Part shown: positions 27,735 through 31,355 of the stretch, piece after piece | Numbering within the stretch: position 1 is the first letter of the stretch | Layout: each line of letters starts with the position of its first letter | NCBI GenBank assembly: GCA_963771155.1 | Contig: CAVYSK010000018.1 | Span: forward strand, 7,302 to 71,301 | Origin: an uncultured Chloroflexia bacterium | GTDB taxonomy: Bacteria; Chloroflexota; Limnocylindria; QHBO01 | Reading direction: 5' to 3' | DNA: 64,000 bases | The notes under the pieces: generated by a model | What the model saw: only the letters and a program-made list of their open reading frames with translations | Told to the model about the DNA's origin: nothing | Database searches by the model: none | Translations under genes and position numbers: made by a program

Positions 27735-28541
27735 GTGGCGCCGGTCATCGAGATCGGGCCCCTCACCTTCGATACGCACGACCTGTTCACCCTGCTCGGC
27801 CTGGCCGCCGGGATCGCGCTCTACTACCGCGCGCTGCGGCGCGACGGGATCCTCGACGCGCGGATCGTGATGATCAGCTTCGCGGCGCTCGCCGGCGGCG
27901 TCATCGGCGCCCGCCTCCTCACCAGCTGGGAGGTCTTCGACGAGGTCCAGGCGGCGGACCTGCCGATCACCTACGTCGTGACCCACGGGCCGCGCAGCAT
28001 CATCGGCGGCCTGGTTGGTGGTTACGTGGCCATCGTGTTGAGCAAGCGGGCGCTGGGCTACACCCGGTCGACCGGTGACTACTACGCCGCCGCGATCCCG
28101 CTGGCGCTTGTCATCGGTCGCATCGGCTGCTTCCTGTCGGAGCTGCCGCTGGGCACGCCGACGGACCTGCCGTGGGGCATGACCATTTCGCCCGAGGCGG
28201 CCGCGGCATTCCCGCGCTGCCCGGGGTGCGACGGACCGATGCACCCCAGCATGCTGTACGAGATCGGCTTCCAGGCGCTGGCCTTCGCGATTCTCGTCAC
28301 GCGCGGACCGATCCTGCCCATTCGCGGCGACACCCTGAAGCTCTATCTGCTCGCGTACGGCGTCTTCCGCTTCGGGGTCGAGTTCGTCCGTGGCAACGAG
28401 GTCCAGGCCTGGGGCCTGACCGGCCCGCAGATCGTTCTCGTCCCTCTCGTCGGCCTGCTGGCGCTGCACTTCGTGCGGCGCCTCCGCTCCGGCGCGTACC
28501 GGCTGCCCGTGCCACGACCCGCATCCGTTTCCGGAGGCTGA
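27735..28541 (+). CDS. lgt: Prolipoprotein diacylglyceryl transferase
   Basis: Multi-pass membrane protein with GRIGCFLSE..PLGTPTDLPWGM and HPSMLYE, matching Lgt signature regions. GTG start. Confidence 0.75.
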   Translation: MAPVIEIGPLTFDTHDLFTLLGLAAGIALYYRALRRDGILDARIVMISFAALAGGVIGARLLTSWEVFDEVQAADLPITYVVTHGPRSIIGGLVGGYVAIVLSKRALGYTRSTGDYYAAAIPLALVIGRIGCFLSELPLGTPTDLPWGMTISPEAAAAFPRCPGCDGPMHPSMLYEIGFQALAFAILVTRGPILPIRGDTLKLYLLAYGVFRFGVEFVRGNEVQAWGLTGPQIVLVPLVGLLALHFVRRLRSGAYRLPVPRPASVSGG

Positions 28542-28544
28542 TCC

Positions 28545-29411
28545 ATGACGCCCGAGATTCGCGCGTACCTCGACGAACACGGCGGCACCTACACGTCCAA
28601 GGCTCTCCGGCAGGGCCTCATCGATGCCGGCCACGACCCCGCGGAAGTCGACGCCGCGATCGCCGAGTGGGAGGCCATGCACGCGTCCGGTGCGGGGATC
28701 GAGGCCGCCGACCGGCGCAGGTTCTCCCGCACTGCGCTGTTGCTACACGTCGGCGCGTTCGCCGCGGTCATCGGGGTCGCATTCCTGGTGTACGGGGCCC
28801 GGGTGGCCGGGTACCTGGGGATCGCGGCGATCATCCTGGCCGTGATCCTCGCCATCGGCTGGGGAATCTCGGCGGCCATCGGTCGCGCCCTTCTGTCGAG
28901 GACTGGCCTCACGATCGCGCTCGTGCTGCCGGTCATCTCGGCCCTCCTCATCGGTGGCACCTGCTATGCGCTCGTTGCCTCGCTCGCCGGGCCTCCCCAG
29001 CACGACGGAACCATGACGCTCGAGACCGAGGGGGACCTCGTCTTCACCGGGTCGGGTGCCGCAATCTGCCAGGGCGAGCCGGGATCGGGGTCCATGAACG
29101 TGTTCAGCGACGACCTCGGCACGGCCGATGGGCGGACGGTGCGGGCAAACGTCTCCACCTACGACAGCGGCGGAGCCCAGGAGTCGATCTACGTCGGCGT
29201 CAGCCTGGCTCCCCTCGATCCCAACGACCCGAACGACTTCGGCCAGAGCTGGAGCTCGGACGGCAACGAAGCGACGGAGGTGCTTGATCTCTCGGACACC
29301 CGGCTATCGGGGACGGTGACCTTCTCGAACCTTGGATCCGCCGAGGCGGAGCAGGGTCCGGAACCTGACCGTCCCGCCCTGGACGGAACCATCTCATGGG
29401 ACTGCGAGTAA
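28545..29411 (+). CDS. Membrane protein of unknown function (about 4 TM segments plus a C-terminal extracytoplasmic domain)
   Basis: Starts 4 nt after the lgt stop. Hydrophobic block 28.7-29.0 kb. No recognisable motif. Confidence 0.5.
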   Translation: MTPEIRAYLDEHGGTYTSKALRQGLIDAGHDPAEVDAAIAEWEAMHASGAGIEAADRRRFSRTALLLHVGAFAAVIGVAFLVYGARVAGYLGIAAIILAVILAIGWGISAAIGRALLSRTGLTIALVLPVISALLIGGTCYALVASLAGPPQHDGTMTLETEGDLVFTGSGAAICQGEPGSGSMNVFSDDLGTADGRTVRANVSTYDSGGAQESIYVGVSLAPLDPNDPNDFGQSWSSDGNEATEVLDLSDTRLSGTVTFSNLGSAEAEQGPEPDRPALDGTISWDCE

Positions 29412-29415
29412 TCCG

Positions 29416-31011
29416 ATGCAAACCTCACCCACTCGACAGCAGCCCGCCGGATCGGCGCTCCCGCTGCGCTCGTACACCCCGCTGCGGATGGTCCTCACCG
29501 TGTGCGGGCACTGCTTCACCGAGGACCCCGACCGCGACATCGACTACGGGATCGACATCCTGCAGGGCAACCTGGTGCTCGAGGACGGATCGGTCTACCT
29601 GCGGCGCCATTGCCGGCGCGGTCACGGCGAGGTCGTCAGCCTCTACGACGAGGACCACGACCTGTGGGAGTACCTCCAGCAGTGGCGAGTGCCGACGCGC
29701 GAGATCGTCGAGGACACGCCGGACAACGTCATGCCGATCCCGATGGGATACGCCAACGGCCTCGGCCGGCTCCAGACGCAGCACTCCTGCATCCTCCTCA
29801 TGGACGTCACCGAGCACTGCAACCTTAACTGCCCCACGTGCTTCGCTGCCTCGGGGACGAACGTGGGCCGATACGCCCGCCTGCCGCACATCCTCCGCAC
29901 TCTCGACGCGTCGATCGAGCGCGAGGGCGGGAAGATCGACGTCCTCATGCTCTCGGGCGGCGAGCCGACGGTGCACCCCGAGATCGTGGAGATCATCCGC
30001 GCCGCCGTCGAGCGCCGGGTCACAAGGGTCCTCTTGAACACGAACGGCATCCGGATCGTGAAGGACGACCGATTCCTCGCCGCCCTGGCCGACCTTCGCG
30101 ATCGGGTCGAGGTCTATCTGCAGTTCGATGGCTTCGAGCTGGAGACGCACCTGTGGCATCGCGGCGAGGACCTCCGGGACATGAAGGCGGAGGCGATCCG
30201 GCGGCTGACCGATGCCCGGATCTTCACGACACTGACAATGGTGGTCGCTGATGGCGTGAACGACCACGAGATCGGCGCGGTGGCGGACTTCGCGTTCGAC
30301 ACGAACTACATCGCCGGCGTGGCCTATCAGCCGGTCTTCGGCTCCGGTCGGTCCCAGCCGATCGATCCGATGCGCCGAATGACGACGACGGGCGTCCTCA
30401 AGCGGCTGGCGCCACAGACGAGCGGGCGGGCCTCGGCCGAGGACTTCATCGCGCTTCCGTGCTCGCATCCCGATTGCTGCGCGATCACATATTTCGTCCG
30501 CGATGACGCCGGGGCGTATCGGTCCATCCCGAAGCTTGTCGGCATCGAGCGGCTCAAGGCGAACCTGTCGGTCGTCGGCAACCGGATCGCGGCGGATGAC
30601 GAGCTGTGGGACGCGCTGATCGGGATGATGAGCGAGACGACGACGATCTCGCGGCCCGAGCTGATCGACTATCTCCTCAACATCTGCGAGGCCTGCGACC
30701 TCTCAATCGGCGGCTTCATCAAGGACGTCGGCCGGTACCTGGTGAAGGGCGAGCGGGCCGCGGAGCTCGTCGCGTTGCGGACGAAGCGCCTGAGCGTGAA
30801 GTCGTTCATGGACGCCTGGACGATGAACATCGAGCGGCTCCAGCAGTGCTGCGTCCACGTCGGTTCGGTCGATGGCGAGTCCGACCCGGTGCGCATCCCG
30901 TTCTGTGCACGGCAGCTGTTCGGTGGCCTGCGGCGCCGGACCTCGGCCGGCCAGGTGCCGGCTCGGGAGCTCGTCCAGCTCGACGGCGTCGTTCGGGGGG
31001 CGGTCTCGTGA
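29416..31011 (+). CDS. Radical SAM enzyme with an N-terminal Cys/His (rubredoxin-like) module and extra Cys clusters. Possibly the tetraether-synthase (Tes / GDGT-MAS, class-D-like) family.
   Basis: CX3CX2C in VTEHCNLNCPTCFA. N-terminal VCGHCF...HCRRGH. Downstream clusters LPCSHPDCCAITYF, NICEACD and QQCCVH. ATG lies 5 nt after the previous stop. The family assignment is from memory of the architecture, not a search. Confidence 0.7.
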   Translation: MQTSPTRQQPAGSALPLRSYTPLRMVLTVCGHCFTEDPDRDIDYGIDILQGNLVLEDGSVYLRRHCRRGHGEVVSLYDEDHDLWEYLQQWRVPTREIVEDTPDNVMPIPMGYANGLGRLQTQHSCILLMDVTEHCNLNCPTCFAASGTNVGRYARLPHILRTLDASIEREGGKIDVLMLSGGEPTVHPEIVEIIRAAVERRVTRVLLNTNGIRIVKDDRFLAALADLRDRVEVYLQFDGFELETHLWHRGEDLRDMKAEAIRRLTDARIFTTLTMVVADGVNDHEIGAVADFAFDTNYIAGVAYQPVFGSGRSQPIDPMRRMTTTGVLKRLAPQTSGRASAEDFIALPCSHPDCCAITYFVRDDAGAYRSIPKLVGIERLKANLSVVGNRIAADDELWDALIGMMSETTTISRPELIDYLLNICEACDLSIGGFIKDVGRYLVKGERAAELVALRTKRLSVKSFMDAWTMNIERLQQCCVHVGSVDGESDPVRIPFCARQLFGGLRRRTSAGQVPARELVQLDGVVRGAVS

Positions 31012-31355
31012 GCACAAGTGCAGCCTCGCTCCGCGACGCCGCCGACAACGCCGGCACCGACCCCATCGCGCAATGGCTCGCTCAGCGCCCGCCGCTGACG
31101 CGCGCTCAGAAATACGAGCGACTCGCGTTCACCGCCTGCAAGATGGGCACGGTCGGTCTCATCGCTTGGATCCTCACGCCGCCGATCTTCGTGCTCGTGG
31201 TCGCACTTGCGGCGATCTACCTCTACGGGCGCGCGCTGGCCCTGGGGATCAAACGCTCGCAGTGCATCCTCCGTCGCCCGATGCGCGTCATGGGCTTCTG
31301 GGCCGTGGTCGCCGCCGCCGACCTGACCTGGCTGATCGTCCTGCGGCCCGCCTAA
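31008..31355 (+). CDS. Small membrane protein (~115 aa), translationally coupled to the radical SAM gene
   Basis: GTG at 31008 overlaps the radical SAM stop (GTGA). Two hydrophobic helices (VGLIAWILTPPIFVLVVALAAIYLY, VMGFWAVVAAADLTWLIVL). Confidence 0.45.
   Translation: MSTSAASLRDAADNAGTDPIAQWLAQRPPLTRAQKYERLAFTACKMGTVGLIAWILTPPIFVLVVALAAIYLYGRALALGIKRSQCILRRPMRVMGFWAVVAAADLTWLIVLRPA

Follow-up and report, generated by a model that had tools for sequence, protein, structure and literature searches.

What is an enzyme resembling archaeal tetraether synthase (Tes) doing in a bacterial operon that begins with a relative of the lipoprotein diacylglyceryl transferase Lgt? The question is raised by a 64,000-nucleotide stretch of DNA (hereafter the window; contig CAVYSK010000018.1 of assembly GCA_963771155.1) from an uncultured bacterium of the Limnocylindria (Chloroflexota), whose genome is available as a 2.9-Mb metagenome-assembled genome (MAG) in 19 contigs. 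The G+C content of the window is about 70%. The radical S-adenosylmethionine (SAM) enzyme encoded in this operon had been proposed to be a possible bacterial synthase of tetraether or membrane-spanning lipids. To our knowledge, the coupling of two inert carbons that Tes performs has no known examples outside the tetraether and macrocyclic lipids of archaea. The operon consists of four genes:

27735..28541, plus strand: variant Lgt paralogue of 268 residues, of the MSMEG_5408 type with Y26H and N146C (Pfam LGT match)
28545..29411, plus strand: polytopic membrane protein of 288 residues, the candidate acceptor protein (GC3 of 0.87; homologues in the same slot)
29416..31011, plus strand: radical SAM enzyme of 531 residues resembling Tes/GDGT-MAS (NCBIfam, PDB and fold matches)
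31008..31355, plus strand: small protein of 115 residues with two transmembrane segments and invariant Cys44 and Cys86 (GTGA overlap; motif)

We found that the 531-residue protein is truly related to tetraether synthase, yet is not Tes proper, and that its partnership with the variant Lgt is obligatory. The four-gene cassette occurs in at least three bacterial phyla and points to a so-far unrecognised modification of lipids or lipoproteins.

The gene spacing given in the original prediction is borne out by the sequence at each junction. The first two genes meet at TGA-tcc-ATG (3 nucleotides), with GGAGG closely upstream, and the second and third at TAA-tccg-ATG (4 nucleotides), while the radical SAM gene and the 115-residue gene overlap at GTGA. 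G+C content at third codon positions (GC3) is 0.87–0.91 and GC1 exceeds GC2 in all four frames, which is the pattern of real genes in this genome, and all four frames therefore look coding. Because the genes flanking them on either side lie on the opposite strand, the four genes form a discrete, translationally coupled operon. A promoter and terminator scan of the operon gave nothing above chance.

The kinship of the radical SAM enzyme with Tes is specific. The best-scoring curated NCBIfam model was TrsS (NF045646; 223.4 bits over residues 49–501, cut-off 490), and the Tes model (NF045702) gave 185.9 bits against a cut-off of 450. No other NCBIfam model exceeded 47 bits, and these remaining matches covered the core domain alone. 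In Pfam, the radical SAM core was found, and the N-terminal zinc ribbon named after MJ0619 (HMPTM) was matched below its cut-off. The sole strong and full-length match in a sequence search of the PDB was to GDGT-MAS (7TOL, E = 4e-37). An AlphaFold2 model built from 74 homologues (predicted local distance difference test, pLDDT, of 84) contains the four-domain Tes fold of rubredoxin domain, N-domain, radical SAM core and C-domain, and in a Foldseek search its only full-length matches were 7TOM and 7TOL (template-modelling, TM, scores of 0.72/0.76, E = 2.5e-35 and about 543 aligned columns to 7TOM). The remaining Foldseek matches, including SkfB, SuiB and PqqE, covered the core only, at TM scores of about 0.3.

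Within this family, however, the enzyme stands apart from Tes itself. Among 1.84 billion representative proteins, its close kin make up about three full-length clusters at 50% identity, followed by a gap in score before the rest of the family starts at about 230 bits. Its clade received 100% support in the approximate likelihood-ratio test (SH-aLRT) in a maximum-likelihood phylogeny of 98 members of the family, where it is set off by a stem of 0.86 substitutions per site, and the clade and 7TOL fall into different halves of the midpoint-rooted tree. The originally proposed resemblance to Tes/GDGT-MAS thus stands as specific similarity but does not extend to membership in Tes (186 versus 450 bits, and a separate clade).

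The cysteine layout of the enzyme is as first described (C30xxC33...H65-C66xxxH70; C135x3C139x2C142; C349/C354/C355; C424/C427; C478/C479/C497), and most of these cysteines are invariant in the 74 homologues. We compared the metal ligands with those reported for Tes by Lloyd et al. (PMC9433317). The three cysteines of the radical SAM motif CX3CX2C (C135, C139 and C142, corresponding to C98, C102 and C105 of Tes) are invariant, as are the ligands of a rubredoxin-like Cys3His site (C30, C33, C66 and H70), although the spacers of this site are longer than in Tes, where it reads C9X2C12X20C33X2H36 (PMC9433317). Equivalents of Tes C338, C455, C456 and C470 are also kept; these cysteines belong to the C-terminal cluster, which in Tes holds the lipid radical and carries a lipid carbon-sulfur intermediate (PMC9433317).

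In contrast, and contrary to the assumption that the auxiliary clusters are laid out as in Tes, the ligands of the N-terminal [4Fe-4S] cluster are gone from the enzyme. The positions of Tes C73, C77, C80 and His83 are occupied in the clade by a gap, N, G or Q, with a histidine at the fourth position in two of twelve clade members, whereas these ligands are present in 63–71 of 82 other family representatives. Met439, the labile ligand in Tes, is replaced by lysine in all twelve clade members, at a position that is also variable elsewhere in the family. Relative to Tes the clade has gained cysteines, of which C125, C349 and C427 are invariant and C424 nearly so.

A selenocysteine was considered, since TrsS is a selenoprotein family, and rejected, as in-frame TGA is absent in the 74 homologues. 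The four in-frame stops encountered in the homologue matches are three ordinary gene ends and one TAG within an Lgt-like gene.

The first gene of the operon, called lgt in the original prediction, does not encode the housekeeping enzyme. Its product matches Pfam LGT (PF01790) at 114.8 bits (cut-off 24.9) but falls below the TIGR00544 equivalog cut-off (69.7 versus 118.9 bits), and its structural model (pLDDT 81) has the seven-helix Lgt fold, with E. coli Lgt (5AZB) as the sole significant fold match in the PDB (TM scores of 0.62/0.59). The genome contains two LGT-family genes, and the ordinary copy, with HWYG and GRLGNY motifs and a score of 187.6 bits, lies on contig 7. The operon copy belongs to a set of 53 cassette-linked paralogues in which, in E. 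coli numbering, Asn146 is replaced by cysteine without exception, Tyr26 by histidine in 47 and Gly27 by aspartate in 46. Strict or almost strict conservation is seen in these paralogues for R143, G154, R239, E243 and R246 as well as for Y201 in the HPSxLYE motif, and C162xxC165 in the head region is near-invariant. Compared with canonical Lgt, the variant has thereby gained conserved C132, C162 and C165 and one histidine.

Two of the altered positions matter in E. coli Lgt, for which Y26, R143, N146, G154 and R239 are reported to be essential and Y26 and N146 are counted among six residues that are absolutely required (PMC13251419). The pair Y26H and N146C has also been reported for MSMEG_5408, the second Lgt homologue of Mycobacterium smegmatis, which is treated there as a weak or redundant Lgt; in the parts of that text consulted, a radical SAM partner is not mentioned (PMC13251419). 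A literature search on the neighbours of MSMEG_5408 found nothing relevant.

Lgt-like genes also adjoin more distant Tes-like genes. In one such clade from Chloroflexota (loci L042, L043 and L045) the Lgt-like neighbours keep Tyr26 and Asn146, and in another (L047) the neighbour has histidine and cysteine, like the operon copy. The two replacements seem to travel together, the exception being Eremiobacterota, where Cys146 is present and the region of the histidine motif is deleted. In one Limnocylindrales MAG (L082:3637-4404) the variant Lgt gene has an in-frame TAG at codon 117 next to an intact radical SAM gene, and this copy may have decayed into a pseudogene or been misassembled.

The two remaining genes encode membrane proteins, whose families we counted across loci both by tblastn and by motif. 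The 288-residue protein has no Pfam or NCBIfam match. Hydropathy and charge predict that a conserved N-terminal domain, about 50 residues long and cytoplasmic, is followed by about three transmembrane helices, the last of which carries a G-x-C motif (Cys140) that is invariant in 40 of 40 members and whose cysteine is predicted to sit at the outer end of the helix. The acidic C-terminal domain, with two further cysteines, is probably exported. Members of this family are found only in Limnocylindria, where zero to four copies stand in tandem and vary in their tails; Eremiobacterota have, at the corresponding position, proteins with a zinc ribbon and transmembrane segments that end a few residues past a conserved cysteine of the last helix. 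The 115-residue protein has two hydrophobic segments, and all of 40 sequences, drawn from three phyla, have its C44, Y73, G80 and C86.

How firmly do these genes belong together? Orthologues of the enzyme (at least 490 bits) are present in nine of 401 Chloroflexota genomes, the source genome included, and a profile of the variant Lgt scores 327–431 bits in exactly the same nine genomes and below 193 bits in all others. A scan of species-representative genomes yielded 80 loci at 47–92% identity in Chloroflexota (Limnocylindria), Eremiobacterota and Acidimicrobiia, all of them from MAGs. Of these 80, 72 have the variant Lgt gene directly upstream of the enzyme gene and on its strand, and in five others the contig ends too close upstream for a verdict. 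In one of these five (L107), and also in L105, an Lgt-like gene lies downstream on the opposite strand, just beyond the enzyme gene in L107. The small-protein motif C-x22-30-Y-x6-G-x5-C follows directly downstream of the enzyme in 69 of the 80 loci, and contig ends cut this region in seven more. Linkage to lgt, whose lack of conservation would have counted against the original prediction, is thus strongly conserved.

Clear exceptions are limited to two Eremiobacterota-type loci (L112 and L115), which have neither an Lgt-like gene nor the two-cysteine small protein within 7 kb. A second tier of Lgt-like scores (160–192 bits) comes from genomes whose distant Tes-like genes also adjoin an Lgt-like gene, and the partnership therefore reaches beyond the clade of the enzyme. 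The cassette is patchy among Chloroflexota genomes even within one genus, and the host lineages of the related loci are from soil and peat. A cluster look-up of ten family representatives returned no cultured or named carriers beyond Fibrobacterota MAGs. One genome of the same class (G221) encodes both an enzyme of the window type (68% identity; C9:73748-75292) and a distant Tes-like paralogue (34%; C6:80513-81790), which indicates that the two are not simple replacements for each other.

What, then, might the cassette do? We place a probability of roughly 40% on a dedicated system of cysteine lipidation that is coupled to radical remodelling of lipid tails. As far as we know, the radical coupling of lipid-tail termini is the only known function of the enzyme's family, and Lgt-family proteins are known only to move diacylglycerol from phosphatidylglycerol onto a cysteine located where a hydrophobic helix ends. 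Because these family chemistries are known and the cassette encodes matching cysteines, lipidation together with tail remodelling is the simplest synthesis.

In such a system the variant Lgt, which keeps the phosphatidylglycerol-binding arginines, would move a diacylglyceryl group from phosphatidylglycerol onto an invariant cysteine of the cassette membrane proteins. The acceptor might be the G-x-C of the 288-residue protein, Cys44 or Cys86 of the 115-residue protein, or cysteines of both proteins. The cytoplasmic Tes-like enzyme would cleave SAM and remove a hydrogen atom from an unactivated carbon close to the terminus of an acyl chain, where a new bond would form as in Tes. The product would be a macrocyclic or membrane-spanning lipid anchor. 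As to the order of the two steps, the radical step might act on lipid already bound to protein, or else on the phospholipid donor ahead of transfer. The variant Lgt may retain some activity, since partial complementation of E. coli is reported for a Leptospira Lgt that has N146C (PMC13251419). More doubtful is the fully specified version of this scheme, a new protein modification in which diacylglyceryl is placed on intramembrane cysteines of polytopic proteins and its tails are then welded by the Tes-like enzyme.

Several points weigh against lipidation with tail remodelling. The active site of Lgt faces the outer leaflet whereas the radical SAM enzyme is cytoplasmic, and how both would gain access to the same lipid is unexplained; this is the main difficulty. 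The Lgt paralogue may not be a transferase at all, Y26 and N146 being essential in E. coli, and the loss of the N-terminal cluster and of Met439 means that the chemistry of the enzyme may differ from that of Tes. Among the candidate acceptors, the G-x-C departs from the canonical lipobox in that residue −1 is often bulky and a cleavable signal peptide is lacking, the 288-residue family is missing from Acidimicrobiia loci and from many Limnocylindrales loci, and the topology of the 115-residue protein is ambiguous from hydropathy.

Other genes in the neighbourhood also appear to handle lipids. One of them is a possible accessory gene whose membership in the cassette is not shown:

21048..23531, minus strand: 827-residue fusion of an AMP-ligase, a carrier domain and a PlsC-type acyltransferase (Pfam AMP-binding, PP-binding and Acyltransferase matches)

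This protein, whose ligase is AMP-dependent and whose carrier domain is of the phosphopantetheine type, is an Aas-like lipid re-acylation enzyme. Its family is found at or near the variant Lgt gene in 26 Limnocylindria loci, in some of them directly upstream on the same strand, and was not found at cassette loci of other phyla; the association may be plain synteny. Adjoining it is a gene for a 418-residue alpha/beta-hydrolase (23509-24765, plus strand) with weak lipase-like matches to DUF676, PGAP1 and LCAT, a second lipid-handling gene in the neighbourhood. Genes for GroES/GroEL, S21, YbeY and HD-domain proteins beside the cassette were rejected as parts of it, since they reflect housekeeping synteny within single phyla.

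Alternatively, the enzyme might be a bacterial synthase of membrane-spanning lipids that joins two tails of free phospholipids into diabolic-acid-like or brGDGT-precursor lipids (brGDGT, branched glycerol dialkyl glycerol tetraether), with the variant Lgt and the small proteins merely acting as a membrane dock, lipid presenter or regulator. We regard this as a serious rival, though a less probable one. Its homology and fold tie the enzyme to Tes, which binds ordinary E. coli phospholipids (PMC9433317) and acts on phosphatidylglycerol-type substrates (PMC13274423), and a role in making brGDGTs has been proposed for bacterial homologues of Tes (PMC8941075). That Lgt-family proteins bind phosphatidylglycerol, that the hosts live in soil and peat, and that the fused acyl-ligase/acyltransferase and the lipase-like gene are close by would also fit. 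However, synthesis on free lipids leaves unexplained both the invariant cysteines of the two membrane-protein families and the need for an Lgt-type transferase with conserved catalytic arginines, and the enzyme is distant from functional Tes and has one cluster fewer. Tes homologues were reported from only three of 14 Acidobacteria that produce iso-diabolic acid and from none of the Thermotoga or Clostridia producers (PMC13159169), and patchiness within a genus would be unusual for a core membrane-lipid trait. Of the original idea of a membrane-spanning-lipid synthase, then, the kinship with Tes holds, but the invariant cysteines of the cassette fit a protein-linked lipid at least as well.

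A still less probable alternative is that the enzyme forms a carbon-sulfur bond between a membrane-protein cysteine and a carbon of a lipid tail or protein, or else that the cysteines ligate a shared metal or iron-sulfur site. Tes itself passes through a lipid carbon-sulfur intermediate (PMC9433317), and the invariant cysteines of the cassette proteins, the C132, C162, C165 and histidine gained by the variant Lgt, and an enzyme without N-terminal cluster ligands of its own might all be accounted for in this way. Yet such a reaction lacks precedent in the family, and the cysteine of the second gene product apparently lies near the outer leaflet, far from the cytoplasmic enzyme.

It is quite improbable that the cassette is a system of the peptide-maturase type that modifies the small membrane proteins without any lipid chemistry. 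The tandem and variable copies of the second gene recall precursor genes, and the radical SAM core has weak matches to SPASM maturases, but these matches are confined to the core and reach 28–47 bits as opposed to 186–223 for Tes and TrsS. A SPASM domain is absent from the enzyme, the fold similarity to SkfB and SuiB is low, and the obligatory Lgt partner would be left without explanation. Assignment to another radical SAM subfamily, whether SPASM or cofactor-related, can likewise be set aside, as none comes near the scores of Tes or TrsS. Finally, the name 7,8-dihydro-6-hydroxymethylpterin dimethyltransferase, which the Joint Genome Institute (JGI) gives to several homologues and which is echoed in the Pfam zinc-ribbon domain named after HMPTM, is effectively refuted, because it stems from an old assignment of MJ0619 that its authors could not reproduce and that has been replaced by GDGT-MAS (PMC9433317), and because pterin chemistry would give no reason for a membrane cassette that includes Lgt.

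The fully specified scheme, with tails welded on lipidated membrane proteins, would, if true, mean that bacteria of soil phyla, and perhaps mycobacteria, apply archaeal tetraether-type chemistry to their lipoproteins. Bacterial membrane-spanning lipids serve as climate proxies, and the role of the many bacterial relatives of Tes bears on the sources and biosynthesis of these lipids. Here one well-defined bacterial branch of the Tes family does not stand alone but comes firmly tied to membrane proteins with cysteines and to a variant of Lgt. The vague question of whether a bacterial Tes homologue makes brGDGTs is thereby turned into a concrete and testable one, that of a lipid transfer step plus a radical step, and the same signature suggests a possible job for the enigmatic second Lgt copy of M. 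smegmatis, a species that would offer a laboratory model if the linkage exists there too. The class of bacterial Tes homologues had already been proposed (PMC8941075), and the mechanism of archaeal Tes (PMC9433317) and the odd second Lgt of M. smegmatis (PMC13251419) were already known. Among the papers searched, none contained both 'tetraether synthase' and 'diacylglyceryl transferase', and the pairing was not mentioned in the passages covered.

Among known systems, the bacterial membrane-spanning lipid synthase Mss of Thermotoga maritima and Thermoanaerobacter ethanolicus, a radical SAM enzyme that joins lipid tails, is the functional analogue suggested by the original prediction; Mss and Tes are reported not to be detectable homologues, and organisms with Mss to lack a Tes homologue (PMC13159169). 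TrsS provides the best curated model for the cassette enzyme, but at 223 bits the match is far under the cut-off of 490, and the cassette enzyme gene has no in-frame TGA. The operon Lgt shares its fold and the retained R143, G154, R239, E243 and R246 with canonical Lgt (5AZB), to which it adds the near-invariant CxxC of the head region, and it has the same Y26H and N146C pair as MSMEG_5408. With Tes/GDGT-MAS (M. jannaschii MJ0619) the cassette enzyme has the four-part architecture and fold in common (TM scores of 0.72–0.76), at about 22% identity. Unlike Tes/GDGT-MAS, it is bacterial, forms a long-stemmed clade of its own and has as obligatory partners a variant Lgt and membrane proteins that bear cysteines.

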